A DNA stretch of 64,000 nt from a virus, in the IMG/VR virus record IMGVR_UViG_3300032288_005424, one strand, 5' to 3'. Made by a program: the position numbers and the translations under genes. The notes under the pieces are model-generated. The model searched no databases and was not told the DNA's origin. It worked only from the letters and a program-made list of their open reading frames with translations. This document shows, one piece after another, positions 9,796 through 26,043 of the stretch; position 1 is the first letter of the stretch; the number at the start of each line of letters is the position of its first letter.

Positions 9796-9821
9796 TGTTG
9801 TAAACTATTTTTTGTTATTTA

Positions 9822-10214
9822 TTATATCTGGATTTCCGGATTTGGAGTTTCAAATCGGCGCTTGCGCATGATGGTCTTGAAGACCAGATCCTTTTCTGAA
9901 CCGTCCGGGTCCGCAACGACCTTGATCGGCACGTTGAGCCAGGTGGCCAGCTGCTTTAGCACTGCTTCGCTTTCGTCGGGCAGTTTCGCCAGTTTATGAC
10001 CGGCCTTGTCGAATGCTTTGAGTAGCAGGGTCTCAAGCTCATCATAGCTTACCTGGGCCCCATTACGGGCATCATTGACCCGGTCCTTGAAGTGAGAGGT
10101 GAAGACGACATCAAGTCCAATCTCATTGAAGTGATCGTCGGCGAATCGCTCAAGGTCCCTAAAGTCCTGAGCATCAAGCTCCTCATTGAGCCATTGGGTA
10201 AATGTCTTTATCAT
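9822..10214 (-). CDS. hypothetical protein with CTS-like N-terminus (GC-richer)
   Basis: MIKTFTQWLNEE; GC content well above the genome average. Confidence 0.5.
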   Translation of the reverse strand: MIKTFTQWLNEELDAQDFRDLERFADDHFNEIGLDVVFTSHFKDRVNDARNGAQVSYDELETLLLKAFDKAGHKLAKLPDESEAVLKQLATWLNVPIKVVADPDGSEKDLVFKTIMRKRRFETPNPEIQI

Positions 10215-10226
10215 AGAGGTTATCTT

Positions 10227-10565
10227 TTAAACCATGCCCCATGCAGCAACCATCTCAACCGTTGCATGGATGTTGGGCTCTTCACCATGAGAGTATTCCA
10301 TCAGTTGCTCGGCAGCGGCCTGCATCTCGTCCGAGTCATAGAGGTATTTTTGGTCGAACTCCTCGGACAGGGCTCTGAGACGTTGCTCAAGCTTTGTGAT
10401 CAGGTCCTGGACCTCCGGGTCTTGGCTGAAGTGTTCGCTGATCGCATCGAGGATCTCGTCACGGTCGGTCAGTTCAACCTGGTCGGTAAAGCCCATTGAG
10501 GCAAGTTCATCACTTTCCTCGGATTCCTTAATGTACTGGCCAATGCCCTTCACTAGTTGTTTCAT
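10227..10565 (-). CDS. acidic protein; higher-GC paralog of ORF 28764..29096
   Basis: MKQLVKGIGQYIKESEE; ELASMGFTDQVEL / DPEVQDLITKLEQRLRALSEEF align with ELRSMGFSDYSAP / DPEVNAAIDTLKSRFRELFAKH of the AT-rich paralog. Confidence 0.5.
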   Translation of the reverse strand: MKQLVKGIGQYIKESEESDELASMGFTDQVELTDRDEILDAISEHFSQDPEVQDLITKLEQRLRALSEEFDQKYLYDSDEMQAAAEQLMEYSHGEEPNIHATVEMVAAWGMV

Positions 10566-10658
10566 TTGTTATCGTGGTTATTTCAGGGTTTATTTATCAT
10601 CGCGCGCCCGGCCCCGCCTAGGGGGTTTTGTAGGCGGTGCAGGCACGCCCGTTTTTTG

Positions 10659-10672
10659 GGTACATTAAACTT
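10659..10672 (+). promoter_or_regulatory. class-2 -10-like box (TGgTACATT) ending 6 nt before the ATG
   Basis: TTTTTTGGGTACATTAAACTT then ATG; the same architecture recurs at 13709 and 29146. Confidence 0.4.
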
Positions 10673-10846
10673 ATGAAAGGACAGTTTATAATTATAGACC
10701 TCAGAACCATGGACTTCATGAAGAACGAGGAGGGCCGCATGAACTTCTATGATACGCTAGACGATGCTCTGCTTGTATGTGGAATGTATGAATTTGAAAA
10801 TGCATGGGTTGTCCAACTCGTCCATAACCATCAAGAAAGAGATTAG
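10673..10846 (+). CDS. small hypothetical protein
   Basis: 58-aa ORF starting at MKGQFIIIDL, directly after the TACATTAAAC box. Confidence 0.4.
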   Translation: MKGQFIIIDLRTMDFMKNEEGRMNFYDTLDDALLVCGMYEFENAWVVQLVHNHQERD

Positions 10847-10863
10847 AGAGATAAACCTAGAAG

Positions 10864-11283
10864 ATGACATTAGCAGAGCTACACGAACTTTGGCGGATGG
10901 GAATCATTGGAGACCAGGAACTCATCCGTATCCAGATAGACCGCATCATGGGCAAGAGCCAACACGCGGGGACCTGGACCGGCCATGGGCTTGAACTTGT
11001 CGGACTCCGAATAACCGATTCAACCGGCTTAGACTCCGGACTCCGGGTTGAAATGGAAGCCAAGGGACCGACCGCAACCCTGAAGGCCGGGGCATTTGGG
11101 CTCAAGAACAATCGGGTCCGGTGCGATTGTGTGGTTCCAACCTGGATGATGGAGAGTCCGGATACCCTAAAGAGCCTGCTTGAAAACCGGCTCATTGTTC
11201 TTTTTGGGCACTTTACCTCCGGGGGAGAATCTGGCCCCGGTAGAGGGACCGGCAAATACGACCCAATTACTGGCTACGTGTAG
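10864..11283 (+). CDS. hypothetical protein (GC-rich island)
   Basis: 139-aa ORF at ~60% GC; its 3' end overlaps the first copy of a ~40-bp direct repeat. Confidence 0.4.
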   Translation: MTLAELHELWRMGIIGDQELIRIQIDRIMGKSQHAGTWTGHGLELVGLRITDSTGLDSGLRVEMEAKGPTATLKAGAFGLKNNRVRCDCVVPTWMMESPDTLKSLLENRLIVLFGHFTSGGESGPGRGTGKYDPITGYV

Positions 11284-11808
11284 CCCAAGCCCGGGGGAGA
11301 ATCTCTAACCGGTAGAGAGCCGGCCCAAAATTTCAATTTTTAGGTCAATTGCGGAGACCGGGAAACCCTAGGACCCGTAGATACCGAAATTGGTCCGGGA
11401 AGCCTCCTCCTGGCCATGGGGATTTCGGAAAAAAGTAAAGTGCTGCGGCCGTCCTCCTGGAGTACTTTTATTACCTCGGCAAGGTCACTCCCGGGGCACC
11501 GCCAGGCAGCCTGGGGGCCACTACCGGGGTCACCTGGGGGCTACTACCGGAGTCAGCCAGGCACTGCCCTGGGGCTGCTCCTGGGGTCACTGCCCGGGTC
11601 ACAGTTCCCGGTTACCCAGACCGGTCCGGGGCAAGGTCCGCCGGGCCGAAACTTGCAAGCAGCCGGGCAGGCGGAACCTCGCGAGACCCGGCAGGTCTGT
11701 ACAGACCTGTCAGCAGACCTGTCAGACGTTGCGGTTGGCTGAACAGACGTTGCGGTTTGCGGGGTCAGATACCGCGGTCTAGCTCGGTCTCGAGAACCTG
11801 GAACCAGG
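11284..11808. repeat. GC-rich non-coding region with tandem imperfect direct repeats
   Basis: Direct repeat CCGGGGGAGAATCT..CCGGTAGAG.GCCGGC at 11221 and 11291; CTACCGGGGTCACCTGGGGG / CTACCGGAGTCAGCCAGG / CTCCTGGGGTCACTGCCCGGGTCAC; CAGACCTGTCAG x2; CAGACGTTGCGGTT x2. Confidence 0.5.
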
Positions 11809-12156
11809 TTGGAGTATAAGAAGTTATTACTTAAATCCAGAAAAAAGATGTTATTGGAAAGTTTAGTTGCAGAATTCTTCAGGATTCTCGAGCGGTCTGG
11901 TCGGGACTGGCACCGGATCCGTTGGGCAATCCGCGGGCTGGAATCCGAAATCCGGCGTAGTGCTCACGGCCAACCCTGGTCCGAGGAGCTTGAAGAATAC
12001 CTTATCTTCCGGATTGGGGAGGCGCTGACCATTGCCCAAAGGGCGGCTGTTGCAAGGGAGGAGTTTGAATGGGCGCATGAAATTGCGATCAGGCTCCGGG
12101 AACTTGGCCACGATTTAGAAAAAACCTTAATAGACAACAATGCAGAAACAGATTGA
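11809..12156 (+). CDS. hypothetical protein
   Basis: 115-aa ORF with intermediate GC. Confidence 0.4.
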   Translation: MEYKKLLLKSRKKMLLESLVAEFFRILERSGRDWHRIRWAIRGLESEIRRSAHGQPWSEELEEYLIFRIGEALTIAQRAAVAREEFEWAHEIAIRLRELGHDLEKTLIDNNAETD

Positions 12157-12157
12157 C

Positions 12158-12319
12158 ATGATAGACCTCATTCTCGAGCGGGCGCTGGACCGCCATGGTC
12201 TAATAGACTGGACTTGGATAGACCACGAACTCGCAAAGAAGGGAGCAACGGTTGAGAGACGGGTCTTACACAAGCGGGTCAAGGCTCTGCTCGCGACCAG
12301 GGCCAAACGGCGTTGGTAG
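12158..12319 (+). CDS. small basic hypothetical protein
   Basis: 53-aa ORF (MIDLILERALDRHGL...) whose ATG overlaps the upstream stop (TGACATG). Confidence 0.3.
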   Translation: MIDLILERALDRHGLIDWTWIDHELAKKGATVERRVLHKRVKALLATRAKRRW

Positions 12320-12360
12320 AATATAATAACCTATCTCTAAAAAAATAAAAGAAAAAGAAT

Positions 12361-12585
12361 ATGCAAAAACTAACAACCCTACTCGCGGCCCTGCTTCTTG
12401 CGGCTGGCCTTGCCTTTCTTGCCTCGGTAATAATTGCCTTTCCGGTCAAGTGGCTCTGGAACTGGTTGATTCCGGAAATTTTTACCGGCGTCAAACCGAT
12501 CTCGGCTCTACAGGCCTGGGGTCTCGTGTTCCTGCTTAACCTCATGATTCCGAACCGTAATCGGACCGAGAAGAAATCGGATTAA
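12361..12585 (+). CDS. small two-TM membrane protein
   Basis: TATAAT box at 12322-12327; two hydrophobic helices. Confidence 0.5.
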   Translation: MQKLTTLLAALLLAAGLAFLASVIIAFPVKWLWNWLIPEIFTGVKPISALQAWGLVFLLNLMIPNRNRTEKKSD

Positions 12586-12669
12586 CCCTAAAAAATTTAG
12601 GAAAAAAGACCCGGGATTTTTATTTCTCGGGTTTTTTTGTTATATTTGTATCATAAATCCAGTAAAGAT

Positions 12670-12831
12670 ATGTACACGTTAGATTGCAACTATTACCAAA
12701 AGGAATTCCGCACGGTCGCCGAACTCTTAACCGACGTTCTCGAGAGCGGTACCGATCCGAACTACGAAATTCTGCGCAACGGCCAACCGACCGGCGAAAC
12801 CGCATGGGACCTCATCGGCCCCGTTGCCTAG
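12670..12831 (+). CDS. small hypothetical protein
   Basis: Preceded by a hairpin plus T-run (12608-12640) and a TTATATTTG -7 box; start MYTLDCNYYQ. Confidence 0.4.
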   Translation: MYTLDCNYYQKEFRTVAELLTDVLESGTDPNYEILRNGQPTGETAWDLIGPVA

Positions 12832-12846
12832 CAAATTTTTCCTTAG

Positions 12847-12940
12847 CGATCCCAGCCCAAAAAGGTTGGGATTTTTTTTTTAAAAAAAGTGAAAATAAAT
12901 TTTTTTGTTTGAGAAATTTTGGTTATATTTGCTTTATCAA
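12847..12940 (+). promoter_or_regulatory. terminator-promoter cassette A (host sigma-A type)
   Basis: ATCCCAgcccaaaaaggTTGGGAT hairpin plus T-run, then AAAAAGTGAAAATAAATTTTTTTGTTTGAGAAATTTTGGTTATATTTGCTTTATCA (TTTG then TAnnTTTG). Confidence 0.6.
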
Positions 12941-12953
12941 ACTTCAACAAACC

Positions 12954-13427
12954 ATGCTTAATCACACCACATTTCCAGCCGCTCTCCTTGCCGGCAACTC
13001 CCGTCTCACCATCACCAATCCAGCGACCGGTCAATGGATCAAGGTCAAGATGAAGCGTCGCAAGGACCGCGAAACCGGCAAGCCGGGTAATTGCTACTTC
13101 CTGTCGCTTGCGCTCTTGCAGGACGGGGACCTTGGCCACCGCTACGTCGGAGCCTACTTCGCGGATTCGGGCCGATTCAAGCCGGGTCGCGATGCCTCGG
13201 CCAGAGAAGTTCAGATCGCCGAATTCCTGATCCGTGCCGTTCGTAATCCGCAACTGTTGCAGGCTGCAGAGATCGAGCACTGCGGTAAATGTTTTGCCTG
13301 CGGCCGGACCCTAACCGTGCCGGAAAGTATCCGCTCGGGCTGGGGACCTGAATGTTTTACCCGCCAGTTCGGAGACCTCAGCCTCCGACCGCTTGCCGAG
13401 TTCGGATTACTTGACCCAATCGGGTAA
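12954..13427 (+). CDS. hypothetical protein (GC-rich)
   Basis: 157 aa starting MLNHTTFPAALLAG, 14 nt after the -7 box; CxxC pair (HCGKCFACG). Confidence 0.5.
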   Translation: MLNHTTFPAALLAGNSRLTITNPATGQWIKVKMKRRKDRETGKPGNCYFLSLALLQDGDLGHRYVGAYFADSGRFKPGRDASAREVQIAEFLIRAVRNPQLLQAAEIEHCGKCFACGRTLTVPESIRSGWGPECFTRQFGDLSLRPLAEFGLLDPIG

Positions 13428-13708
13428 TCCGGCCCGGCCGGGGCCGGACTCCCTAGTAAAGAGTACAATAATTTCATTAATTAAAACCATAAAATCATGA
13501 AGAAGTTAATTCAAAGATTCCTATTCGGAACCCCAATCCAGGGCGAGACGGTTGACCTAAGCGTTGGCAAGCCCAGAATTCAGAGCACTTGCGAACCTGC
13601 GGAGAAGGCAAGCTTCAATGAGGTATTCCAAAACGTGCACCGCGAATTACAGGCCGCAGCCGCAGAACGACTTGGGGTCAGGGGATAATCCAATCCCTTC
13701 GAGGATTG

Positions 13709-13722
13709 GGTATATTAAACCT
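13709..13722 (+). promoter_or_regulatory. class-2 -10-like box (GGGTATATTAAAC) ending 6 nt before the ATG
   Basis: Same architecture as 10659 and 29146; preceded by hairpin CCAATCCcttcgaGGATTGG. Confidence 0.4.
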
Positions 13723-13980
13723 ATGAATACGCCCAATCAACCCGAAAAAGAAAAGATACTCTATGACCTAACCGGCTTAGCCGCCAGCCTGGTCGCCGGA
13801 GGAATCTCTAGAAATCAGCCCGATATTCTGCTCATAGGTAAGATCTTAACCGTAAGCATCGGAGCCCTGGACTCAGAAGCCGGCAAGGAGAAATTAGAAG
13901 AATTCCTTGTTCAGATTCACAATGCGAGAGAGGAAGAAGAAGAAGTGAGAAAGATGTTAAAAGACCTGGGTATTGGGTAA
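13723..13980 (+). CDS. hypothetical protein
   Basis: 85-aa ORF beginning MNTPNQPEKEK. Confidence 0.45.
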   Translation: MNTPNQPEKEKILYDLTGLAASLVAGGISRNQPDILLIGKILTVSIGALDSEAGKEKLEEFLVQIHNAREEEEEVRKMLKDLGIG

Positions 13981-14230
13981 GATAACAATAATAAAAGATT
14001 ACAACTGGTGGAGGAAGTAACAAGAGTTACCAACTGACTGGAGTAAAGGATTCTACGGGTAAAAAGTCAGAGCCCGCTTGAGAGAATCGTCGGAGCAACA
14101 CCGAACTCCACCGCAAAATGATAAATTGGTTTGGTTGATTGATTCAGCAATGGGAGACTCGCAAGGTCTCCTTTGTTGGTTATTGAGTATATTAGTAATT
14201 ATCATTAACTCCTAAATAAAAAGAACCCTT

Positions 14231-14383
14231 TATGAATCCATTAATTCAAACATTTAAAGTACTATACAACTACGCCAAAGAAGAACCTCGTGATTTCGTA
14301 TTATCAATCGCCTTCATGATATTAATGATATTCATTGTTTGGGCGAGCCTATGGGGTCATGCAATAATTAGCGGCACCGTTTA
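14231..14383 (+). CDS. small membrane protein
   Basis: 50-aa ORF with one TM helix (LSIAFMILMIFIVWASLW); TATATT box at 14187-14192. Confidence 0.3.
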
Positions 14384-14461
14384 AAATTTAGGACATGAAT
14401 AATAAAGACATAGTAATAGATGACGTCTTGATTGGATAGACATTAAATCAATAGATATACC

Positions 14462-14707
14462 ATGGAAAAAATAAGTTGGGAACCGGTAAAGGACAGACAC
14501 TGCCACGGCCGTTGCGAGCTAGGCGAGCTATGGATCCGTTTGGACCGTGAGGGTAAAGTAAGCGGAATATACACGATGTTCGGCGAGACCAAGAAATGGT
14601 GTCCGGAATCCGAGGAAGAAGAAACCCTTGTTGGAGCAAAGGTAATCTGCGAATTACTCTTAGCTGGCGAGATCGCGGCCAGAAAAATAGAGAAAATTAT
14701 TCAATAA
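14462..14707 (+). CDS. small hypothetical protein
   Basis: 81-aa ORF. Confidence 0.4.
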   Translation: MEKISWEPVKDRHCHGRCELGELWIRLDREGKVSGIYTMFGETKKWCPESEEEETLVGAKVICELLLAGEIAARKIEKIIQ

Positions 14708-14746
14708 AAATTGTCAGGTGTCAAGTTTCTGTATTATATTTACAAT

Positions 14747-14887
14747 ATGGAAAATAACAAAGACCTAAAACCAGAACCCAAACAGGAAAAGCCAGAACCT
14801 TGCAAGCACGAACGCTATTACATTGCGGTCCGCCACGTGAGCGGACTTGTTGTAAGAAGGTGTTCAATTTGCGGAGTGAGAGTTTAA
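14747..14887 (+). CDS. small zinc-ribbon-like protein
   Basis: 46-aa ORF (CKHERYY...CSICG) preceded by GTGTCAAGTTTCTGTATTATATTTACAAT promoter; shorter than the ORF-track cutoff. Confidence 0.35.
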   Translation: MENNKDLKPEPKQEKPEPCKHERYYIAVRHVSGLVVRRCSICGVRV

Positions 14888-14908
14888 TTAAGACATTATC
14901 CAAAGAGA

Positions 14909-15020
14909 GCCCGGCCAATGGTCGGGCTTTTTGTTAATAACTATGTTAATAACTTTTTTTAAAAAAAGTGAAAATAAATTTTTTGGTTTGAGAAATTTGT
15001 TTTATATTTGCTCTATCAAT
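14909..15020 (+). promoter_or_regulatory. terminator-promoter cassette B
   Basis: AGCCCGgccaatggtCGGGCT plus T-run, then AAAAAAAGTGAAAATAAATTTTTTGGTTTGAGAAATTTGTTTTATATTTGCTCTATCA. Confidence 0.6.
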
Positions 15021-15049
15021 TATCAATTAACCCTTAAAAAACCAAACTT

Positions 15050-15427
15050 ATGCAAATCCAATTAACCCACCAAGAATCAGAACAGATGTTCCACAACGCT
15101 CTTTGCAACGGCTTAGGCTACATGAGCGGCTACGGTCTAGAATTCGAGTACAGCGACGAGCAGTACAGCGCAGCAAAGACAAAACTTCAGAGCCCATGCT
15201 TCGAGGACGTGCTCATGCAAATCCTACGCGACGGCGGTAGTCTAACTTTCGTAGACGTTGAATGCGACGGCGAATACACTCGCTCGGTCTCGTTAGCTGA
15301 TGTCCACGACAGAGTTCAAAAAACTCCAGCTCGCTTCTTGTTAGACATGATCAATGAGAACGACGATGCTGAGACAGCGGATGTAATTCTACAGACGGTG
15401 TTCTTCGAAGAGATCATCTTCGGATAA
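15050..15427 (+). CDS. hypothetical acidic protein
   Basis: 125-aa ORF followed by a long GC-rich hairpin containing ACTCCCTAGT. Confidence 0.5.
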   Translation: MQIQLTHQESEQMFHNALCNGLGYMSGYGLEFEYSDEQYSAAKTKLQSPCFEDVLMQILRDGGSLTFVDVECDGEYTRSVSLADVHDRVQKTPARFLLDMINENDDAETADVILQTVFFEEIIFG

Positions 15428-15562
15428 TCCACGGCCAGCCGGCCGGGCCAGTAGGCCACTCCCTAGTACGGGTGGTCCGCTGGCCCGGACCTTTAGAGCC
15501 AAAACGGGGTCGGACTCCCTAGTAAAGAATTTAAAATCAATAACCAATTAAATCAAAAGATC

Positions 15563-15769
15563 ATGCAACAAGAAATAATTAAAACCTTAACTGAATTAAA
15601 AAGAAACAAGAAGTACATCGCGCTCTCGCTCCACCCAGCAATCGGTAACTCAACGATTTCCAAGGAGGATAACAGACTCTTCATCAACGAAGGTCGAGGC
15701 GGTAAGTGGGAAGGAGTATCGGAAAGTTTCTACGACGAGATGGTCGCTAAGTTCGATTCACGTAGCTAG
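15563..15769 (+). CDS. small hypothetical protein
   Basis: 68-aa ORF. Confidence 0.4.
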   Translation: MQQEIIKTLTELKRNKKYIALSLHPAIGNSTISKEDNRLFINEGRGGKWEGVSESFYDEMVAKFDSRS

Positions 15770-15780
15770 AAAATATTTTT

Positions 15781-15835
15781 CACAAAAGTGAAAATAAATT
15801 TTTTTGTTTAAGAAAAAAGTGTTATATTTACAATC
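15781..15835 (+). promoter_or_regulatory. promoter C (sigma-A type) for the sigma-factor gene
   Basis: CACAAAAGTGAAAATAAATTTTTTTGTTTAAGAAAAAAGTGTTATATTTACAATC. Confidence 0.55.
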
Positions 15836-15867
15836 TCAATTATTAATCAATCAAAAACCCAACAATT

Positions 15868-16587
15868 ATGTCAAAAAGATTTGAAACAGCGGATGGCCTA
15901 CCGCAATACTTCAAGAGTATTGAATCAGTTGCCAAACCACTAAGCAAGACGGAGGAGCTTGCGCTAGCGGATAGAATCCAAGCGGGAGACGAGCGCGCGC
16001 TCAATGCTCTGGTAACCGCGAATCTAAAGTTCGTCGTAACCCTTGCGAATAAGTTTATCGGTATGGGATTACCGATCGATGACTTGATTCAAGAAGGAAA
16101 CGCTGGTCTAATTGAAGCGGCTCGTAAGTTTACATCAGATAAGGATGTTAAGTTTATTACCTATGCCCAGTTCTGGATTCGCAAGCGCTTGAATCTTGCT
16201 CTTTGCGATTACGGCAGAATCGTTAGGCTTCCGGTAAATCAAGAGTACGACATTTACAAGCGCAAGATGAAGGGAGAAGAAATCAATCTCTCAACCGTAC
16301 AGATCGATAAGCCTGTTGGCGAGGACGGTGACAATACAATCGGCGATATAATGCTTCGTACAGACTTTGCCGATCCGTTCGAGAAGGAAGAAACCAATCG
16401 TGTCTTGACCAGATTACTTTCAAAGTTAAGACCGACCGAAAGGGAGATTGTTGAATTGTTTTACGGTCTCGTGGGAGATGGCCTTTCTACGAAAGAAATC
16501 GCAGAGCAAGTTGGAAAGACCCCAGCTGAAGTTAACCGCGCGTTGAAGGTCGCACGTGCACAAATGAGAAAGGAGGTAAGCAAATGA
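15868..16587 (+). CDS. sigma-70 family RNA polymerase sigma factor (regions 2, 3, 4)
   Basis: Region 2 (NLKFVVTLANKF...DDLIQEGNAGLIEAARKFTSDKDVKFITYAQFWIRKRL) and region 4 (TEREIVELFYGL...LSTKEIAEQVGKTPAEVNRALKVARAQMRK). Confidence 0.7.
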   Translation: MSKRFETADGLPQYFKSIESVAKPLSKTEELALADRIQAGDERALNALVTANLKFVVTLANKFIGMGLPIDDLIQEGNAGLIEAARKFTSDKDVKFITYAQFWIRKRLNLALCDYGRIVRLPVNQEYDIYKRKMKGEEINLSTVQIDKPVGEDGDNTIGDIMLRTDFADPFEKEETNRVLTRLLSKLRPTEREIVELFYGLVGDGLSTKEIAEQVGKTPAEVNRALKVARAQMRKEVSK

Positions 16588-16799
16588 ATACGATAGAACA
16601 CGCAAACACGATGGCTGCCATGGCAGTCGATATCCTCTACTCTGAGGGTGATCCATTCAAGGAGCCAATAGATAAATCAAGACTCCAGTGGGAGATTCGT
16701 CAGGCCACCCTGAAGAAACTTGTGACTGAAGATTCAGACCTATTGGACGAAGACGAATTCCAAGCCTGCGTTAATAACTCTAAAATTCAAAAGGCATGA
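16584..16799 (+). CDS. small hypothetical protein
   Basis: 71-aa ORF whose start overlaps the sigma-gene stop (ATGA). Confidence 0.4.
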   Translation: MNTIEHANTMAAMAVDILYSEGDPFKEPIDKSRLQWEIRQATLKKLVTEDSDLLDEDEFQACVNNSKIQKA

Positions 16800-17092: not shown

Positions 17093-17094
17093 CC

Positions 17095-18830: not shown

Positions 18831-18867
18831 AGATATTTCGAGAAATCGAGATTGGCGACAGGCTAAG

Positions 18868-18955: not shown

Positions 18956-18980
18956 TTAACCACCTAAATTATTAATCAAC

Positions 18981-19499
18981 ATGGCAAAGAAAATCCAAAC
19001 CACCGAACGCGCTAGCGGAACCTCATTCCACGGAACAGAATTCAGAGCGAGCGCAAACGAAATTATTGCAATCCTTGGCGAACCAACATACAATGACAAC
19101 AACGGCAGAGATAAGGTAAATCTTGAATGGGTATGCGAGACGGACGAAGGAGACGTCTTTACGATCTACGATTGGAAAGAGTATCGTCAAATCGGAATGG
19201 ACGAAAAGATTGATTGGCATATCGGAGGACACAGCGGCCGAGTAACTAAGAAGGCTGTGATGGAGCTTGAGAAGTTTGGAGTGAAGCCTTTGGAAGATAT
19301 GCTATCATTTAACGAATTTTTAAAAGAATCCAAAAAGCACAAACTAAGTATAGGCGATTTGATTGAATTTGATAACGCCGAAGCTAGAATTTATAATGTT
19401 TATACGACTAGAGGCGGTAAAGCCATGTACACAGTCGGCAGCTCAAAACATGGAACCATTGAGATTGAAGCCGAAGACATAGAAAAACAGATAAGGTAG
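18981..19499 (+). CDS. hypothetical protein
   Basis: 172-aa ORF. Confidence 0.5.
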   Translation: MAKKIQTTERASGTSFHGTEFRASANEIIAILGEPTYNDNNGRDKVNLEWVCETDEGDVFTIYDWKEYRQIGMDEKIDWHIGGHSGRVTKKAVMELEKFGVKPLEDMLSFNEFLKESKKHKLSIGDLIEFDNAEARIYNVYTTRGGKAMYTVGSSKHGTIEIEAEDIEKQIR

Positions 19500-19517
19500 A
19501 TTGATTGGATTACAGAA

Positions 19518-19605
19518 GCTGCTCAGAAATGGGCAGCTTTTTTTTTGAAAAAAGTTTAAAATAAATTTTTTTATTTGAGAAATTTGTTGTATATTTACAC
19601 TGTCA
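19518..19605 (+). promoter_or_regulatory. terminator-promoter cassette G (no ORF directly downstream)
   Basis: GCTGCtcagaaatggGCAGC plus T9, then GAAAAAAGTTTAAAATAAATTTTTTTATTTGAGAAATTTGTTGTATATTTACACTGTCA; about 100 nt follow without an ORF before the next cassette. Confidence 0.5.
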
Positions 19606-19708
19606 ATCAAACACTGACGGGACGGTTCGGAACAAGGAAGCGGGAGGTATACTCCGACCTGCACCAGACCTAGCGAGTTGTTAACAACCGAATGTTAATA
19701 ACTTTTTT

Positions 19709-19765
19709 TAAAAAAAGTGAAAATAAATTTTTTGGTTTGAGAAATTTGTTTTATATTTACAATCT
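19709..19765 (+). promoter_or_regulatory. promoter H (sigma-A type)
   Basis: AAAAAAAGTGAAAATAAATTTTTTGGTTTGAGAAATTTGTTTTATATTTACAATC. Confidence 0.55.
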
Positions 19766-19777
19766 AAATTAATCAAT

Positions 19778-20035
19778 ATGCCAACATCATTTCAACCAAT
19801 CGAAGCCCAAACATTACGGGCACAACTACAGACAGGAATTGTAAAATTCTTTTTTGTAAAAAAGGACGGCTCACTTCGTGAAGTCCAAGGAACCACCAAC
19901 TTACGCCACGTGCCGGCCGACAAACATCCTCAAGGCGTACGTCAAACCCCACCAAGCGTTATCACCTTCTGGGATCTCCTAGCGGGCGATTGGCGCAGTG
20001 CGAAAGTAGAAACTCAATTCTTTATTAACCCCTAA
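19778..20035 (+). CDS. small hypothetical protein
   Basis: 85-aa ORF. Confidence 0.45.
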   Translation: MPTSFQPIEAQTLRAQLQTGIVKFFFVKKDGSLREVQGTTNLRHVPADKHPQGVRQTPPSVITFWDLLAGDWRSAKVETQFFINP

Positions 20036-20047
20036 ACCCCACACATC

Positions 20048-20233
20048 ATGGTAACACAAGAAGCAATAGATGAAGCAATCAAAATATTCGGCGAGGACGT
20101 CGTTTATCAAGCAATGGAAGTCGTAGCAATGTCGGATCCCGATGGAGCCTACGCAATGTTCGAGGACATGGGCCAATTCGAAATGGCTGAAGCTGTAGAG
20201 TTTCTTTATTTCGACGGCTCTGCTGACGACTAA
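20048..20233 (+). CDS. small acidic protein
   Basis: 61-aa ORF. Confidence 0.4.
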   Translation: MVTQEAIDEAIKIFGEDVVYQAMEVVAMSDPDGAYAMFEDMGQFEMAEAVEFLYFDGSADD

Positions 20234-20283
20234 AATAGATAAAACTGTAGTACATTAGTCTTAACAATCAAATCAAAAGTAAT

Positions 20284-21414
20284 ATGCAAGAACGTATCGG
20301 TAAAAAAGAATTAGTAGTAAGAGACTTCTTTGAAGCTCAACACGGTGGTCGCGTGCCGCAACTAACCGTTCAACAATTGTACACCCAATTCATGACGCAG
20401 TCGACGGACGCCTCGGGCATCTCGTACGGTCTCTTCAATGGGGTAATCAAGAAGCTGCGCTTCGAAACGGGAGACTCCCTAGTCCCAGGCCCAGGCCAAA
20501 GCACGATAGCTAGAGCCACGGCTGGAGCACAGGCTGACTCCGTAGTAGAAATCAGCGATGAACCCGAGATCTTCGAGATTGGCTCAATGGAGTTTCCTAA
20601 CTTCCGCAAGTTCAAGACCGGCTCGGTGTTCGATCAATTAATGTCGGATCATGACGAGGCCGGCGGTATTTTCTCGGGCACGGCTAATATTGTAATCGGC
20701 GAGTCAGGTGTAGGTAAGTCAACCGTAACCTTGGACATGCTTGCCAAGATCAAGCAGCAGGACCCAACCGCCAAGATCTTGTACATCTCAAGCGAAATGA
20801 CTCGTAACGATCTATTCTTCTATTACAGAAAGATGCCGATCATCGAGACCATTCCTACTCTCTTGGTAATGGATTACCTAATGGGTCGTTTCGATAAGAC
20901 CTTAGAGAAGGCGATCAACGGCGACTATGACGTTATCCTAATTGACTCTCACCAAGACATTATTGTCAAGCTGAAAGACGTGCTTGGCTGGAAGTCTACC
21001 AAGGCCGAGACATGGTTAACCAACCTGATTATCGAAGCCGCTGACAAGAAAGGTAAAGCAATCTTCGCGATCCAACACATGACTAAGGGCGGTGAGTATG
21101 TCGGTTCAACCTACCTCAAGCACGCCACGACCTCAATGATGGAGATCAAGTTCGACGACGCGGGTCGCAGGTTCGTAGAGTTCTCGAAGAACCGCCGAGG
21201 CGGTAGCCTAGTCGGCAAGCGCTTGTACTACTCCCTAGTCCAAGGTGAGGTACGTTGGGACGAGGCCGCATGGAGACAGGAGACCGTGGTTAGCGAGTTG
21301 GCCGAGCAAGAGTCAGAACGCCGCCAACACTTGGAGGGCCAGTTCAACTCTCTGTTCCTAAGCGTTAAGAGACCCCAAACTGATGCAGAGAACGCTGAAA
21401 CTGCAGCAGAATAG
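20284..21414 (+). CDS. RecA-superfamily ATPase, RadA/Sms-like
   Basis: Walker A VIGESGVGKSTVTL; KNRRGG resembles the RadA KNRFG motif; hydrophobic strand plus D (ILIDSHQD) as Walker B; two GC-rich patches with ACTCCCTAGT. Confidence 0.5.
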   Translation: MQERIGKKELVVRDFFEAQHGGRVPQLTVQQLYTQFMTQSTDASGISYGLFNGVIKKLRFETGDSLVPGPGQSTIARATAGAQADSVVEISDEPEIFEIGSMEFPNFRKFKTGSVFDQLMSDHDEAGGIFSGTANIVIGESGVGKSTVTLDMLAKIKQQDPTAKILYISSEMTRNDLFFYYRKMPIIETIPTLLVMDYLMGRFDKTLEKAINGDYDVILIDSHQDIIVKLKDVLGWKSTKAETWLTNLIIEAADKKGKAIFAIQHMTKGGEYVGSTYLKHATTSMMEIKFDDAGRRFVEFSKNRRGGSLVGKRLYYSLVQGEVRWDEAAWRQETVVSELAEQESERRQHLEGQFNSLFLSVKRPQTDAENAETAAE

Positions 21415-21470
21415 TCGGAAACTTCAGCACATAATTTAGTATATTAACCCAATAAAATAAATCAATAGAC

Positions 21471-22589
21471 ATGATAAGCCAATCAGAATTCAATCAGATC
21501 AAATCAGACCTAAGCGGCAACGACCCCTTGGTAAAGCGAGTGAAGTTGTCAGACATCCAGTTGGACGACAACTCAATCAAACATAACCACATCGAGATCG
21601 AGGGATCACGAGTTCCGGTGTCGGATAAGTTCTTCAATCGTCTGGGCCAGATGGTAAACATCAACACCGGCCTAATCACGAAGATGAATAAGAACTCGGA
21701 CAAGGAGATCGAGACCAAGCTCTTACAGGCGGTTAAGTCCTATTCAGAAACCCGTGATGGTAATAAAGAGTTTCTCTTAATCGGCGACTCTACGAGCCAT
21801 CAGGTAACCAACATCGTGAAGGGAGACAAGTATAACAGATTATCTAATGATACGCTGTTCGCTACCGCAGAGACCATCCTAAACGAGATCCCGGACATGC
21901 ACGTTGAGTCAATCGACCGTGGCGGTCCAGGCGGATTATCCATTAACATGATCCATGGCAGCCAGATAGGTTACGAGAAGATCGGTAAGGACGAGGTATT
22001 CCGTTTCGGTATCTCTCTTGTAAACGGCCAGACAGTAAGCCGAGTTGACGACTTCTTCTATCGCTTGGCCTGTGCCAACGGAGCGGTAGCTCGCAACATG
22101 GACACCGCGTTCCAATTCGGTCAGGGTCAGGACGCCTTCCGCAAGTTGCTCGAGCAGATGCAAGGTTGGGCAAAGAACGGCTTCGTACCTAAGACCTTCC
22201 AAGACAGGTTGGAAAGAGCCATGACCACCAAGGCAAGCTACTCAGAATTGGAGAGAGCCTTGTACTCAGTAACCGGTGCAATCCAAGAGAACGACCCTAA
22301 CTTCAAGGCCCACTTGATCAAGAACGCAGAGTCTCAATTCTTTCCAGAGTTCGATGCAACCACGAAGCGTATCTTCCGTAAGGGTTACAATCCGCTACAG
22401 TTGACAGACGCTCAAAAGAAGTTCATCAAGACAGATGCTACAATCTGGGACGTTGTTAACGAGTTGACATGGATCGGTTCTCACGATACTGTCTTCAACT
22501 TAAAGAACCATAAAGGTTTCAAGGTAGAGGGTGGTAATCTATTCGCTAAGAGCTGGGATCTAGAACACGCAGGTCTAGCTACAATCTAA
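21471..22589 (+). CDS. hypothetical protein
   Basis: 372-aa ORF; TATATT box at 21440-21445. Confidence 0.5.
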   Translation: MISQSEFNQIKSDLSGNDPLVKRVKLSDIQLDDNSIKHNHIEIEGSRVPVSDKFFNRLGQMVNINTGLITKMNKNSDKEIETKLLQAVKSYSETRDGNKEFLLIGDSTSHQVTNIVKGDKYNRLSNDTLFATAETILNEIPDMHVESIDRGGPGGLSINMIHGSQIGYEKIGKDEVFRFGISLVNGQTVSRVDDFFYRLACANGAVARNMDTAFQFGQGQDAFRKLLEQMQGWAKNGFVPKTFQDRLERAMTTKASYSELERALYSVTGAIQENDPNFKAHLIKNAESQFFPEFDATTKRIFRKGYNPLQLTDAQKKFIKTDATIWDVVNELTWIGSHDTVFNLKNHKGFKVEGGNLFAKSWDLEHAGLATI

Positions 22590-22618
22590 GCCTTAAACAA
22601 ACTATCTATAACCGGAAA

Positions 22619-22648
22619 GGGGTCCTCACAAGGGACCCCTTTTTTTTG
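22619..22648 (+). terminator. rho-independent terminator
   Basis: GGGGTCCtcacaaGGGACCCC plus T9. Confidence 0.65.
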
Positions 22649-22761
22649 TGTTTAGTAAAACCTTAAACTCAATCCAAGTATAAGACTACTGTAGCTGATT
22701 AAACAGCTTTTCATTTTTACGACTGATGGATGGGCTTCCTAATAAGGAGCCCATTCGTCGT

Positions 22762-22905
22762 TTAGCCCTGGCCGACATTGCGCTTCACGTAGTTCTTGGA
22801 GCTCTTGTTGTTAGAGGTCTTAGACTTCGCGTGCACGCCGGGCCTGCTCACTTTAGTCTTTAGTCTAAAGGTCGAGGCAGCCGAGGTTTTAGTTGATTTA
22901 GCCAT
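22762..22905 (-). CDS. small Lys-rich basic protein (47 aa)
   Basis: MAKSTKTSAASTFRLKTKVSRPGVHAKSKTSNNKSSKNYVKRNVGQG read from the minus strand inside the GC-rich island; possibly a DNA-binding protein. Confidence 0.3.
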   Translation of the reverse strand: MAKSTKTSAASTFRLKTKVSRPGVHAKSKTSNNKSSKNYVKRNVGQG

Positions 22906-23035
22906 TGAGAGATTATGATTTATTGTTATTTAACCCAAAAACCGTGCCTCCCCCGGTGAGCTCTGGAGTTGAGCCCCCAGGCCATGGGGATTCGGGTCAC
23001 AAGTACCTTCATCGCCCCCAAATAAATAAACCAGT

Positions 23036-23485
23036 ATGACAAAGACACTAGCGCAAAAGGATTTAGACTTCATCAGATTCTGCATAGCAGAATTAGGGAT
23101 AACCACCGCTCCCAACATCAGGGTCGGGGATGACCACTCAAAGGCCCAAGACCGGAGAGCAATGGGTTACTACAGTCCCAAGGATAATTACATTTGGGTG
23201 CTAAGGGGCCAGCGAATCCCGGCTGACTGGTACCGAACCCTAGCCCATGAGCTTGTGCATTGGCGCCAACGCGAAGAGGGTAAGCCATTGGACGGGGCGG
23301 ACGGTAGCGAGATCGAGAATGAAGCTAACTCCAAGGCAGCGGTGCTCCTACGCGAATGGGGCCGCCGTTACGAACACATTTACGTGCTGGACGAGGACGA
23401 GCCCCAGATTCCAGTAGGCACTGACCTGCCTTTCGATGGCGGTGGTAGCCTGGCCGGCGAGCCAATGGTTCCATTCTCTCTCTAA
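23036..23485 (+). CDS. HExxH motif protein (putative Zn peptidase, ImmA/IrrE-like?)
   Basis: LAHELVHW motif; ~58% GC; converges on and overlaps the recombinase gene by 4 nt. Confidence 0.4.
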   Translation: MTKTLAQKDLDFIRFCIAELGITTAPNIRVGDDHSKAQDRRAMGYYSPKDNYIWVLRGQRIPADWYRTLAHELVHWRQREEGKPLDGADGSEIENEANSKAAVLLREWGRRYEHIYVLDEDEPQIPVGTDLPFDGGGSLAGEPMVPFSL

Positions 23486-24105
23486 TCCCCAATCAAGCGG
23501 CGGGACTCCAGGATGAGATCCGCTAGATCCGACTTTAACTCTTCCCGCATCTCTTCAGTTGTTAGGTGCTTGCTAACTACATGCAGCTCGACACCGTGCC
23601 AGGTCAGGAATCTCTCTATGATCTCTTGGCCAGCAAAGCGCGCGATCCTGTCAGGGGTCTCGACGACAATCATTGAGACCTGCTTGCGCAGTACCCCGTC
23701 CATGATCTTGTCCAGGCCGGACCTGCCAGCTAGGGTACCCGCGCGCCCAACATCTTCAATGACCCGGTCGACCCGGACCCCGGCCGCCGCACAGTACTTC
23801 AGGACCCGCTCGGTCTGGGCCGCGAGTCTGGCCTTGGCCCCTTTACCCAACGTGTGGTTTCCCTCGATCGGAGCGGATCGCGTGTAAACCCATACCTCTC
23901 GGGACTGGGGCAGCCTACTCCCTAGTAACTTAAGTAGGTCCTGCTTGTCGTAGTAGGTCCGGCCATTGACCTGATTCTTCCAGTTCTGCAGCCTGCCGTC
24001 GGCGACATAGCGGTCCAGGGTCTTGAGCGAGACCCCCAAGAACTGGGCGGCCTCCTTCTTGTACACGAGCTCCCCGGTCGGGAAGGTTCTAGTTTCTTGT
24101 TCCAT
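23482..24105 (-). CDS. IS607-family-like serine recombinase (N-terminal MerR-like HTH plus resolvase catalytic domain)
   Basis: N-terminal HTH (AAQFLGVSLKTLDRYVADGRL) followed by resolvase motifs VWVYTRSAP...DRVIEDVGRAGTLAGRSGLDKI...VSMIVVETPDRIARF...GVELHVV; HTH-first order as in IS607 TnpA; ~65% GC; start set at MEQETRT (track gives 24270). Confidence 0.55.
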   Translation of the reverse strand: MEQETRTFPTGELVYKKEAAQFLGVSLKTLDRYVADGRLQNWKNQVNGRTYYDKQDLLKLLGSRLPQSREVWVYTRSAPIEGNHTLGKGAKARLAAQTERVLKYCAAAGVRVDRVIEDVGRAGTLAGRSGLDKIMDGVLRKQVSMIVVETPDRIARFAGQEIIERFLTWHGVELHVVSKHLTTEEMREELKSDLADLILESRRLIGD

Positions 24106-24400
24106 GAGATTATTTATCAGGCCGGGTCCGTGGACTCTCGAGACATTCCCGGGCCCGGTGTCCCGCGGTGTCCGTATATGTCCCGAGTCGTGGGGCCCTC
24201 GCGACCCAGGGCAGCAGGTCCCAGGGCCCGGGGCCGGGCTCGCCGTACTCCGTAGTCCCCAGGTCCGCACAGTAGGTACCCCTTGGGCGTGGCTGGCCGG
24301 TTTACTCCCTAGTCCCGGGTAGGACCGCAGAGGGCCGTGGCAGCCCCCGGACCGGTGGTCGGCTGGGGCCCGGCTATCGGGCCCGGCTTGAGCGAGATTG

Positions 24401-24415
24401 GGTATACTAGCCTAT
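24401..24415 (+). promoter_or_regulatory. class-2 box GGTATACTAG 7 nt before a 29-aa membrane peptide ORF
   Basis: GGTATACTAGCCTAT then ATG (24416) MKRAGIRFDWAWPIVLVVVLASIIIFFIA. Confidence 0.35.
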
Positions 24416-24632
24416 ATGAAAAGAGCAGGGATAAGATTTGATTGGGCATGGCCTATAGTGCTGGTGGTAGTGTTGGCTTCTATAATAATCTTTTTTATAG
24501 CATAGGTAGACTGGGTAGGTTTACTAGACTAGGTAGGTTTAGTAGCTAGAGTAATCTCTTTACTTTTGGGTGTAGGGCGCGCCTCGGTGTTTTTGAGCGA
24601 GAAAAGGTCCACGGCCCGGCGAGCTCGGGTCT

Positions 24633-24647
24633 GGGTATAATAGACTC
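24633..24647 (+). promoter_or_regulatory. class-2 box GGGTATAATAG just upstream of the tRNA-like element
   Basis: TATAAT at 24635-24640; a TSS ~7 nt downstream would precede the element at 24651. Confidence 0.4.
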
Positions 24648-24650
24648 TAT

Positions 24651-24772
24651 AGTCAGGTGGCGGAACGGTAGACGCAACAAGTAAGCTAATGGAAAGTGTA
24701 CAATTCCATGAGGCCATTAATTCCGAGATGTAAGAGAAGTACATCGTGCCCGTTCGAATCGGGTCCTGACCA
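24651..24772 (+). ncRNA. tRNA-like element with a ~35-50 nt insertion in the anticodon region (pseudo-tRNA or unusual RNA)
   Basis: 5' AGTCAGG-TG-GCG-GAACGGTAGA-CGC (acceptor, U8, D-arm with GG) and 3' GCCCG-TTCGAAT-CGGGT-CCTGACC-A (T-arm plus acceptor pairing 6/7); the middle is 72 nt instead of 22-39. Confidence 0.3.
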
Positions 24773-24791
24773 CTAATACAAATAGATCAAC

Positions 24792-24977
24792 ATGAAAGAA
24801 CAAAAAGTACTCGTGACCGGCGATCAGGGCTCGCATGAGGTGCAGGCCAAGGTCGATGCCCTACTCGTGGAGGGTTGGCAGGTGGTGTCGGTCACCGCAC
24901 AGCACGTTTCCACAGGTTCAAGCCAGTTCTTTAGGGGCGGTTACTTCATCGTCTTTGAACGGGCGGCCGCCGAATAA
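24792..24977 (+). CDS. small hypothetical protein
   Basis: 61-aa ORF, GC-rich. Confidence 0.4.
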   Translation: MKEQKVLVTGDQGSHEVQAKVDALLVEGWQVVSVTAQHVSTGSSQFFRGGYFIVFERAAAE

Positions 24978-24985
24978 ATAACTCT

Positions 24986-25477
24986 ATGAAGTATATCAAA
25001 CTATTCGAGGAACTTGCCTCTGACCTGCCTACTCTAAGGGACGTGATCGACAATAACCCCGACGATTTCGAAGATTTTAGGTCCGCTGCGGTAGAGACCG
25101 CCTCGGCGCTTGGCCTCAAGCTCTCCGGCGAGGACAGCGAACTACAGGACATGGGGCTCATTGATGACGAGGCCCTGTTCGACCGGCTCGAGTTTGATCG
25201 TGTTAAGCTCGTCTTTAACATTACCGAACTTACCCATGCTGATGCTCCAAGGCTCAGGGCCCTGGTGCAAAAGTTTCCTGGCCTCTTCACGCTTGATTAC
25301 GATGAGATTAGGCCCGCCCGCAAAGCTGTTCCAAACAAGACTATAGACCCTGAGGTTGACCTCGAGCCCGGCGAGCCGGTGGACGTCATCGTGTGGAAGG
25401 ACCAGGCTGGCAATACCGCGGTCCAGTGGGAGAGCTACTACAATAACATGTGGTTCATGCTGGACTCAGCACTTTAA
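24986..25477 (+). CDS. CTS-like N-terminus protein, tandem paralog 1
   Basis: MKYIKLFEELASD; ~52% GC; similar throughout to 25499..26017. Confidence 0.55.
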   Translation: MKYIKLFEELASDLPTLRDVIDNNPDDFEDFRSAAVETASALGLKLSGEDSELQDMGLIDDEALFDRLEFDRVKLVFNITELTHADAPRLRALVQKFPGLFTLDYDEIRPARKAVPNKTIDPEVDLEPGEPVDVIVWKDQAGNTAVQWESYYNNMWFMLDSAL

Positions 25478-25498
25478 AAAAAAGAATAATAAACCCAA

Positions 25499-26017
25499 AT
25501 GAAATACCTTAAGATATTCGAAGAATTCAATAATTCAGAACTTGCAACTCTACAGGACGTGCTCAATCCGGACCATTATAACGGGGATGACGGTCGCCTT
25601 GAGATGTACTCAGAGGCTGCGCTTGAGACCTGTAAGATGCTTGGCGTTGCACTACCTCCGGAGTTCGCAGAGATCAATGATCTTGGTCTCATTGACCAGC
25701 ATGACCTCATGGACAGCTTACCGCTGGACTCTGTGGTTGAGGTCTTTAACATACTGGCTCTCACCCACCAGAACGAGCCGAGAGTTCGTGAATTCTGCCG
25801 CCGCTTTCCTGGTATACTAGCATACGATCCGGACACCGACGAGTATCGTCGACCTGAGAGTTCACGACAGCTTGAAGAGATCTTTATTGACTCGCCGGAA
25901 TACTGGGACGAGGTTAGGGTGGTGCTCTTTGAGGACAAGAACGGGCTGAGAGCGGTTGAATGGGAGGACCAAGACTATCTAGGCTACTTCATGCTTAGAC
26001 GGGACCTTGAAAAATAA
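25499..26017 (+). CDS. CTS-like N-terminus protein, tandem paralog 2
   Basis: MKYLKIFEEFNNSE; shares LGLID...ALTH...FPG with 24986..25477. Confidence 0.55.
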   Translation: MKYLKIFEEFNNSELATLQDVLNPDHYNGDDGRLEMYSEAALETCKMLGVALPPEFAEINDLGLIDQHDLMDSLPLDSVVEVFNILALTHQNEPRVREFCRRFPGILAYDPDTDEYRRPESSRQLEEIFIDSPEYWDEVRVVLFEDKNGLRAVEWEDQDYLGYFMLRRDLEK

Positions 26018-26043
26018 ATAATCTTGTAAAAAAAGAAACTCAC

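Follow-up and report, generated by a model that had tools for sequence, protein, structure and literature searches.

GC-rich islands, probably long-lived and position-stable, and an oriented repeat motif in a freshwater jumbo-phage lineage

We describe three GC-rich islands in a 64,000-nucleotide (nt) stretch of viral DNA (IMG/VR record IMGVR_UViG_3300032288_005424; "the window" below means this whole 64-kb stretch), which we treat as part of a freshwater jumbo phage. The islands lie at 9800-13700 (island 1, GC 0.517), 22650-24450 (island 2, 0.565) and 24800-26020 (island 3, 0.515). On balance, we judge it probable that these GC-rich stretches are compartments of the lineage's accessory and regulatory arm that have kept their position over a long time, and not recent imports. 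Their high GC would be upheld by a fixation bias towards G and C, for which the likeliest cause may be GC-biased repair or gene conversion as co-infecting relatives frequently recombine. The high GC is possibly reinforced by alleles exchanged with GC-richer relatives, and the sequence constraints of conserved repeat arrays would add to the bias. A short oriented motif and these arrays would be bound by a phage DNA-binding protein, most economically the product of an adjacent IS607-type transposase-like gene (207 amino acids (aa); called recombinase-like below), which apparently no longer behaves as a mobile element.

Background windows of 500 nt (1-7500 and 28750-64000) have a mean GC of 0.407 (standard deviation 0.027, maximum 0.488), and the window as a whole has 42.9% GC. 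In the sliding-window analysis island windows average 0.530 and reach 0.648 (Mann-Whitney p = 2e-14 vs background). The three GC-rich segments of a preliminary description of this DNA are thus upheld at 51.7, 56.5 and 51.5%, although the background of ~38% given there is slightly low against 40.7 ± 2.7%. Its boundaries are also softer than drawn. The arm from ~7.5 to 28.75 kb is raised throughout (0.474), the stretch between the islands has a GC of 0.438 (p = 4e-5 vs background), and 26.4-28.5 kb, beyond the range first named, also reaches ~0.50-0.53. In the coding part the excess is found mainly at third codon positions (third-position GC (GC3) 0.54-0.74, vs 0.31-0.44 at 30-64 kb). A codon-position test on variable sites (first/second/third-position counts in Table 1) identifies most island open reading frames (ORFs) as coding, namely 9822-10214, 10227-10565, the five genes at 11848-13427, the zincin-like and recombinase-like genes of island 2, and 24792-26017. 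The two sharpest GC peaks, at 11400-11800 (0.64-0.715) and 24100-24400 (0.68-0.73), are therefore non-coding.

The relatives retrieved (designated by L numbers) include 250-271 kb IMG/VR contigs of lake origin and a 254-kb contig binned as 'uncultured Bacteroidetes'. Two examples of the 250-271 kb relatives are IMGVR_UViG_3300034060_001466 and CAIWBA010000291.1. All homologs of island genes that we found are on phage-like contigs of one clade, and when cellular genomes were scanned for homologs of the recombinase-like gene, just two phage-like contigs came up, both placed in metagenome-assembled genomes, which gave a host assignment no finer than 'Bacteroidetes bin'. Across the clade, islands 1 and 2 keep their synteny, and only sub-cassettes within 9.5-11.4 kb vary. 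At island 2 the conserved order (sigma factor ... WYL_2 protein, ATPase, 372-aa protein, zincin-like protein, recombinase-like protein) holds in L014, L016, L021, L023, L024, L029, L030 and L107. In every relative the recombinase-like gene is the GC3 maximum (0.49-0.77) and the 300 nt upstream have a GC of 0.52-0.71, against backgrounds of 0.37-0.45; this signature is also present where the recombinase-like protein is only 51-57% identical. GC3 is raised too in the ATPase, 372-aa and zincin-like genes, and drops with distance from the repeat array upstream of the recombinase-like gene. The same loci are GC peaks in relatives down to ~51-55% protein identity, whose genome backgrounds are 37-45% GC. 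Synonymous sites must be saturated at such divergences, so a composition owed to foreign origin alone should be gone by now. To judge from these comparisons, the islands look ancestral and older than the divergence of the clade. An assembly chimera or binning artefact, for which nothing speaks beyond the composition itself, is refuted and has a negligible probability: the same junctions occur in independent JGI, ENA, Logan and IMG/VR assemblies, with the juxtaposition found in at least six independent assemblies (JGI, ENA, Logan) at 92-99% nucleotide identity.

The substitution spectrum was derived from 14 close strains and 8 outgroups (83-89% identity) mapped on the window, with biallelic sites polarised by parsimony and sites with a local GC of at least 0.52 assigned to the GC-rich class. 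For this class, 57 AT-to-GC and 61 GC-to-AT changes imply an equilibrium GC of 0.56 (observed 0.57); for the AT-rich class, the counts of 99 and 93 imply 0.40 (observed 0.39). Per AT site, AT-to-GC changes occur at 2.3 times the rate in the GC-rich class (Fisher p = 2.6e-6). Within 13.7-24.66 kb only, where the same strains cover both classes, GC-rich sites have a ratio of 41:47, vs 19.7:56.3 expected under the AT-rich regime (p = 4e-5). Variable sites are also denser in the GC-rich class (3.0% vs 1.6%), and no other part of the region is as variable or as mosaic as the islands. In the GC-rich class, changes in the two directions balance at this level of divergence (92-99% identity), with no drift to AT (amelioration). 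Together with the recurring GC peaks, this balance suggests that the islands are ancestral and maintained, rather than decaying imports. They seem to be actively kept GC-rich.

Paralogous genes provide a further line of evidence. The GC-rich gene at 10227-10565 had been described as a paralog of the AT-rich gene at 28764-29096, and we find 39% identity over 70 aa (E = 4e-9). Syntenic orthologs of the GC-rich copy in L103/L105 (53-75% identity) have a GC3 of 0.60-0.61, vs 0.28-0.39 in neighbouring genes, and orthologs of the AT-rich copy in L014 and L024 are AT-rich too (0.27-0.31). Because the orthologs of each paralog keep the GC3 of their site, composition follows genome location, not gene family or origin. 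Orthologs of the adjacent gene 9822-10214 in L103/L105 have a GC3 of 0.56-0.60, and those of 24792-26017 in L014 (62-73% identical) 0.47-0.49. The GC-rich paralog is missing from one relative (L036).

The main alternative is recurrent allele exchange with GC-richer relatives. The preliminary description had proposed that the islands came from a related phage of higher GC, and not from the host. We consider such acquisition, be it recent or ancient (in a common ancestor, and kept GC-rich by allele replacement), unlikely, although part of its basis stands: the islands carry phage gene families, modules are exchanged, and higher-GC relatives with the same module exist. Two of these (L066/L067) have a GC of 0.54-0.57 over 6 kb, with a GC3 of 0.83 in the ATPase ortholog and 0.83-0.88 in the ATPase and 372-aa orthologs. 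Module-level discordance in L054 and L019 shows inter-lineage exchange; in L054 the ATPase is 90% identical and the recombinase-like gene only 63.5%. Cassettes turn over at 9.5-11.4 kb, which is deleted or replaced in relatives at 80-90% nucleotide identity, with the non-coding element of island 1 retained. Close relatives also differ by cassette gain, loss or replacement around 24.6-25.0 kb, and L003 and L014 encode an acetyltransferase in place of the 61-aa gene of the window. The richness of the recombinase-like protein in Arg, Ala and Gly would fit import, and imported tracts would likewise yield balanced or GC-ward 'substitutions'.

The use of composition as a mark of acquisition is not borne out, given that the islands are syntenic, their GC3 is kept and their substitutions are balanced. 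Recent acquisition is opposed by the synteny and the common GC signature in all AT-rich relatives, down to the identities given above. The higher-GC lineages are the most distant members (51-56% identity), with no near-identical donors among them, and on these comparisons L066/L067 are not plausible as recent donors. No closely related, donor-like higher-GC version of any island gene was found; for every island gene tested, the nearest non-self homologs come from AT-rich relatives with the same islands. The raised GC3 shared by the conserved core neighbours (the ATPase and 372-aa genes), with its fall away from the array, also argues against acquisition.

The recombinase-like protein of island 2 has an N-terminal helix-turn-helix domain (HTH_17/MerR-like, Pfam E = 6e-8) followed by a serine-recombinase/Resolvase domain (E = 7e-12). 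The closest PDB structures are catalytic domains of IS607-family TnpA proteins (ISC1904, ISC1926, MJ0014 and IS1535). The match to the NCBIfam model NF033518 (transpos_IS607; E = 1.4e-26, 93.2 bits) is below the cutoff of 110 bits, and relatives score 96-103 bits. Its 68 homolog clusters all belong to this phage group. Based on alignment only, the canonical YxRVS(S/T) catalytic serine appears unconserved in the family and missing in the window copy, which reads YTRSAP...GKGAKARL (clade consensus YCRAAG). Some relatives encode VS(S/A)xxRL ~10 residues later, and the window copy does not. The neighbouring 149-aa zincin-like protein has weak Pfam matches to DUF6782 and MPTase-PolyVal, all below cutoff.

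Given these features, it is very improbable that island 2 is an active insertion sequence of the IS607 family that came from a GC-rich source. The TnpA domain architecture, the best database matches and the direct repeats adjoining the gene are as expected for such an element. Against it stand the score below the curated cutoff, the loss of the canonical serine, the absence of a TnpB partner, and the occurrence of the gene as one copy, flanked by the zincin-like gene and the array, at all loci retrieved (more than 20 relatives). The direct repeats are upstream of the gene, and element ends are not definable.

The array consists of 57-58 bp tandem units beginning GGGACTAGGGAGTAC, upstream of the minus-strand recombinase-like gene. 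In the window there are two units (24304-24313 exact, 24247-24256 with one mismatch), then a conserved leader of ~145 nt, a ATAAATAA box and the ATG. Relatives have 2-5 units with a period of 57-58 nt, the last of which is at a fixed 136-147 nt before the ATAAATAA box. No consensus RNA structure was found for the arrays, which argues that selection acts on their sequence. The 10-mer core, ACTAGGGAGT, has seven exact and two one-mismatch copies in the window, all on the minus strand, from 13448 to 24313, and at local GC peaks. There are no copies elsewhere in the window, and none of 100 shuffles reached nine matches. In all relatives every ACTAGGGAGT copy is on the strand of the recombinase-like gene, with none in other parts of the same phage. 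Within the ATPase gene, the motif codons AC TCC CTA GT do not vary among ~20 relatives, whereas synonymous sites next to them do.

Further repeats occur around these sites. The two ATPase copies within 20474-20546, separated by 63 nt, lie on either side of a low-complexity linker (LVPGPGQSTIARATAGAQADSV). Distant ATPase orthologs lack this linker and have a single motif copy; the arrangement has the look of a motif unit duplicated in frame inside the gene. The most distant relatives (L066/L067, L065 and L068-L070; contigs of 0.51-0.58 GC) still have ACTAGGGAGT copies paired at a 57-nt spacing, some of them within or following the gene. At 24507-24549 (plus strand) and in the upstream 'pre' sequences of relatives (L016, L043 and L048) there are an 18-nt tandem repeat (TAGACTAGGTAGGTTTAC, 2.4 copies) and a recurrent GGGACTAGGGCA(A)GGCCCATG unit just distal to the array. 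Both repeats look like degenerate versions of the motif.

We infer that a phage DNA-binding protein binds the oriented motif and the arrays. The adjacent transposase-like protein is the most economical candidate, because IS607-family TnpA proteins bind cooperatively to short directly repeated motifs (PMC6188088); this step is inferential, since the spacing departs from published cases. The motif may function as a promoter, processing site, strand-specific nick site or origin, and the resulting nucleoprotein structure may serve regulation or recombination. A loose likeness of the motif to T7/T3 promoters carries no weight here. More tentatively, and with low confidence, we propose an undescribed cis-element system in which oriented GGGACTAGGGAGTAC arrays, with further copies embedded nucleotide-invariant in neighbouring genes, and a domesticated IS607-type protein organise a recombination-prone region. 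The activity of this system would hold the kilobase-scale islands at a compositional equilibrium of their own within the AT-rich genome. It could act as an origin, for nicking or cassette exchange, or as a nucleoprotein structure.

Several points weigh against long-lived islands that are kept GC-rich and bound by such a protein. The 57-58 bp spacing of the motif is unlike the ~10-bp phasing described for IS607 ends (PMC6188088). Identity profiles (L054, L019, L014 and others) have no sharp breakpoints at motif copies, and fall gradually towards the array. When only strains of at least 97.5% identity are compared, GC-rich sites have 9 AT-to-GC vs 17 GC-to-AT changes (n = 26). This ratio fits the AT-biased background regime and weakens the equilibrium claim; it is also the pattern expected of young variants under AT-biased mutation input followed by GC-biased fixation, and alone proves nothing. 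The outgroups are 11-17% divergent and were used with parsimony, and imported tracts are counted as point changes, which can inflate AT-to-GC counts. The AT-rich left arm (1-9800) has an AT-to-GC excess of 33:12 among very close strains, opposite in direction to the remaining AT-rich class. In addition, the data cover the 64-kb window and fragments of relatives, and no whole genome.

The GC peak of island 1 coincides with a conserved non-coding repeat element (11215-11847). We identified two CCGGGGGAGAAT..GGTAGAG units, four 23-nt CCTGGGGGCCACTACCGGGGTCA-type repeats, two copies each of CAGACCTGTCAG and CAGACGTTGCGGTT, and a nearly invariant core of ~100 nt (GGAAAAAAGTAAAGTGCTGCGGCCG.CCTCC.GGAGTAC....). 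Variable sites in 11284-11847 (57/60/59) lack codon periodicity, as is expected of non-coding DNA, and no gene was called within the L001 counterpart. The element is kept in L001, L036, L038 and L039, and more weakly in L099, L084, L086, L088 and L102; in the more distant L084 it forms a local GC peak of 0.64, vs ~0.36. A second repeat, CGGGGGAGAAT, was considered as a dispersed motif and rejected, as it has only two local copies in the window and is not above chance.

That the GC peaks are structured non-coding RNA genes or leaders in an AT-rich genome appears improbable. Both peaks are non-coding and conserved, and the plus strand of 11284-11847 folds slightly better than shuffled sequences (z = -2.15; the second folding z-score for the 11215-11847 element is -1.29). 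A tRNA-like relic is also found nearby (24651-24773, plus strand). The relic has a 7-bp acceptor stem (GGTCAGG/CCTGACC), a D arm, a canonical T arm (GCCCG-TTCGAAT-CGGGT) and an aberrant middle of ~60 nt; ARAGORN predicts only an intron-containing tRNA-Gly with a poor anticodon stem, and an Rfam search of this stretch returned nothing. At gathering and E-value thresholds, Rfam gave only tRNAs and chance-level matches, and no family for the 11215-11847 element. Folding and RNAalifold revealed no convincing structure in either non-coding element, with weak covariation terms (-1.83 and -0.18 kcal/mol) and sequence blocks that are kept between variable spacers. Moreover, RNA genes would leave the raised GC3 of ~15 protein genes unexplained.

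Codon usage offers another explanation, in which island genes would fit the tRNA pool of the host and the AT-rich bulk would rely on phage tRNAs (expression-class codon adaptation). The window encodes five tRNAs and a sister contig just downstream at least 16 more; the phage tRNAs (at least 21) mostly have U34 anticodons. Their number and anticodons, the location of the GC excess mainly at third codon positions, and the host-type promoters ahead of many island genes fit this idea. We nonetheless regard it as quite improbable: the GC-richest parts are non-coding, paralogs of the same family differ by location, and the islands mix genes behind host-type promoters with N-terminal-motif genes behind ATAAATAA boxes, as do AT-rich genes. 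A continuation of the phage past window position 64000 (L007, 7706-18011) has at least 21 tRNA genes. One L007 tRNA has the anticodon TCA and was called as tRNA-SeC (selenocysteine); an opal suppressor is possible.

The remaining features of island 1 are small genes and their spacers. The ORF at 10864-11283 is a lineage-specific cassette without a Pfam match, and we rejected it as a solid gene. It has no codon-position signal on either strand (24/18/25), amino acid identity is lower than nucleotide identity in both frames, and in L103/L105 the gene caller favoured the 132-aa ORF on the opposite strand. The last protein of the run at 11848-13427 matches DUF6011 (E = 2e-8). Between each of the last three genes of this run is an AT-rich terminator-promoter cassette, with terminators at 12603 and 12848 and promoter cassettes serving genes 12361-13427. 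Indel breakpoints of relatives, at approximate positions 14208/14445, 14710/14932-14973, 17804/17864 and 18574/18830, fall within or near such spacers.

Table 1. Features in and around the GC-rich islands. Variable sites are counts at first/second/third codon positions.
Feature	Position	Strand	Properties
130-aa N-terminal-motif gene (MIKTFTQWLNEE)	9822-10214	-	GC 0.51, GC3 0.61; variable sites 17/16/52
112-aa GC-rich paralog	10227-10565	-	GC3 0.63; variable sites 19/9/29
139-aa ORF, doubtful coding status	10864-11283	+	GC 0.55; opposite-strand 132-aa ORF
GC-rich non-coding repeat element, conserved	11215-11847		GC 0.60 overall, peak 0.715
Five small GC-rich genes	11848-13427	+	102 aa; 59 aa; 74-aa membrane protein (12361-12585); 53 aa (12670-12831); 172-aa DUF6011 protein (12909-13427)
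Seven composite cassettes: terminator hairpin with T-run, then Bacteroidota-type promoter TTTG ... TATATTTG	12590-19620 (12590-12672, 12838-12958, 14915-15050, 15775-15870, 17845-17952, 18850-18982, 19500-19620)	+	between small genes; from cassette alignment
GC hairpin and one ACTAGGGAGT copy (13448-13457)	13430-13457	-	directly after DUF6011 stop codon
ACTAGGGAGT pair	15458-15523	-	56 nt apart; local GC peak after gene 15050-15427; kept in L014/L020
RecA/RadA/DnaB-superfamily ATPase (AAA_25)	20284-21414	+	Pfam and PDB matches; GC3 0.62
Antisense motif copies in ATPase gene	20474-20483, 20537-20546 (one mismatch), 21230-21239	-	
149-aa zincin-like putative metallopeptidase	23036-23485	+	GC3 0.61; syntenic in all relatives; variable sites 25/16/70
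207-aa IS607-type transposase-like (recombinase-like) protein	23482-24105	-	GC 0.59, GC3 0.74; variable sites 38/17/87
Motif copy inside recombinase-like gene	23917-23926	-	codons L-L-G-S-R
Non-coding leader/array	24106-24400	-	GC 0.70; two 57-nt units starting GGGACTAGGGAGTA
61-aa gene and tandem paralogs (163 aa, 172 aa) with N-terminal motif	24792-26017	+	GC3 0.55-0.66
AT-rich paralog of 10227-10565	28764-29096	+	GC3 0.39

A phage-specific N-terminal motif had been reported for island genes at 9822, 10227, 24986 and 25499, and is present in all four ORFs (MIKTFTQWLNEE, MKQLVKGIGQYIKESEE, MKYIKLFEEL and MKYLKIFEEF). The tandem paralogs at 24986-25477 and 25499-26017 are 39% identical (E = 1e-30). 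A regular expression finds the motif in at least 14 ORFs of the window, and ~14-20 window proteins start MKxxKxFxxF..(N)E, with sites such as 4302, 9010, 10214, 24986, 25499, 26044 and 28764, and further ones at 29980, 31642, 33090, 34857, 38919, 61662 and 62274. A ATAAATAA box is located 5-25 nt upstream of many of these genes (24 boxes in the window), and one at 10597 lies beside gene 10227-10565. Box and motif resemble what we take to be the T4 late promoter, TATAAATA, and the T4 capsid-targeting sequence MKTYQEFIAE. The latter is cleaved by the prohead protease. By analogy, this resemblance would suggest that N-terminal-motif proteins are late-expressed and packaged in the virion.

The window encodes a sigma factor, a type II topoisomerase and many small ORFs. 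A megablast search with the 16-kb region found no match among 50,697 phage records, and a PHROGs search assigned no function to most large window proteins. A 485-aa protein (30185-31642, plus strand), which carries the N-terminal motif, has no PHROG family; its relatives in the phage database are only two uncultured 635-642 kb 'megaphage' records, at 30% identity. Intergenic spacers contain promoters of the form TTTG ... TATATTTG, which we take to be the Bacteroidota promoter consensus. The host is probably a member of the Bacteroidota, because of these promoters and of the contigs and bin of the relatives.

Compositional islands, morons and hyperplastic regions are known phenomena, and we compared each with the islands described here. 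Morons, atypical accessory cassettes of tailed phages, are reportedly a concept of Juhala and Hendrix. The islands resemble them in having small genes with their own promoter and terminator between conserved genes (at 12361-13427 in island 1), atypical composition, and differences in presence or absence between close relatives. Unlike in morons, the atypical composition is common to orthologous loci across a deep clade, where it is apparently maintained, and also spans conserved core genes and non-coding repeat elements. Since the composition is shared and apparently maintained, the classical step from atypical composition to recent acquisition fails here.

Oriented dispersed cis-sites include Chi, parS inside parB, and the strand-specific nick sites of T5- and phiKMV-type phages. 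Like these, the motif is short, confined to one strand, and found in coding and non-coding DNA, including the gene of its candidate binding protein. It differs in its unrelated sequence and in its phased 57-58 bp arrays.

GC-biased gene conversion has reportedly been described in prokaryotes by Lassalle and colleagues in 2015. What we observe would resemble it in that AT-to-GC fixation is locally in excess, above all at synonymous sites, where variability and, apparently, recombination are highest. Mosaic identity profiles and the higher diversity are indirect signs of such recombination. To our knowledge, this process is undocumented as kilobase-scale stable islands within a phage genome. GC enrichment linked to recombination or repair has been reported in prokaryotes (PMC6867656).

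The T4-type hyperplastic regions contain PeSL promoter-terminator cassettes (PMC2839356, PMC4122927). As in those regions, a repeated stem-loop terminator and promoter flank small variable ORFs here; the approximate indel breakpoints of relatives fall in or near these spacers. Unlike PeSL, the promoter is of Bacteroidota type (TTTG/TAnnTTTG) and the phage has no demonstrated kinship with T4; PeSL regions are also not described as GC-rich islands. With IS607-family serine transposases TnpA, which have directly repeated end motifs (PMC6188088, PMC4058570), the recombinase-like gene shares an N-terminal MerR-like helix-turn-helix followed by a serine-recombinase domain, and short direct repeats that adjoin it. 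It differs from them in its sub-cutoff score, unconserved serine, lack of TnpB and fixed position in all relatives. Its repeats are 10-15 bp long and 57-58 bp apart, vs 9 bp at ~10 bp, and also occur kilobases away inside other genes.

We regard three features as new variants of these known phenomena: that the islands persist, that the motif system is confined to one strand, and that the IS607-like gene is immobile. Atypical composition is routinely taken as a sign of recent horizontal transfer, a rule that misleads here. If maintenance is tied to recombination, the islands would clearly exemplify how locally biased fixation shapes the genome of a virus. The one-strand motif, the phased arrays and the immobile transposase-like gene together form a testable candidate for a new phage DNA-protein system.

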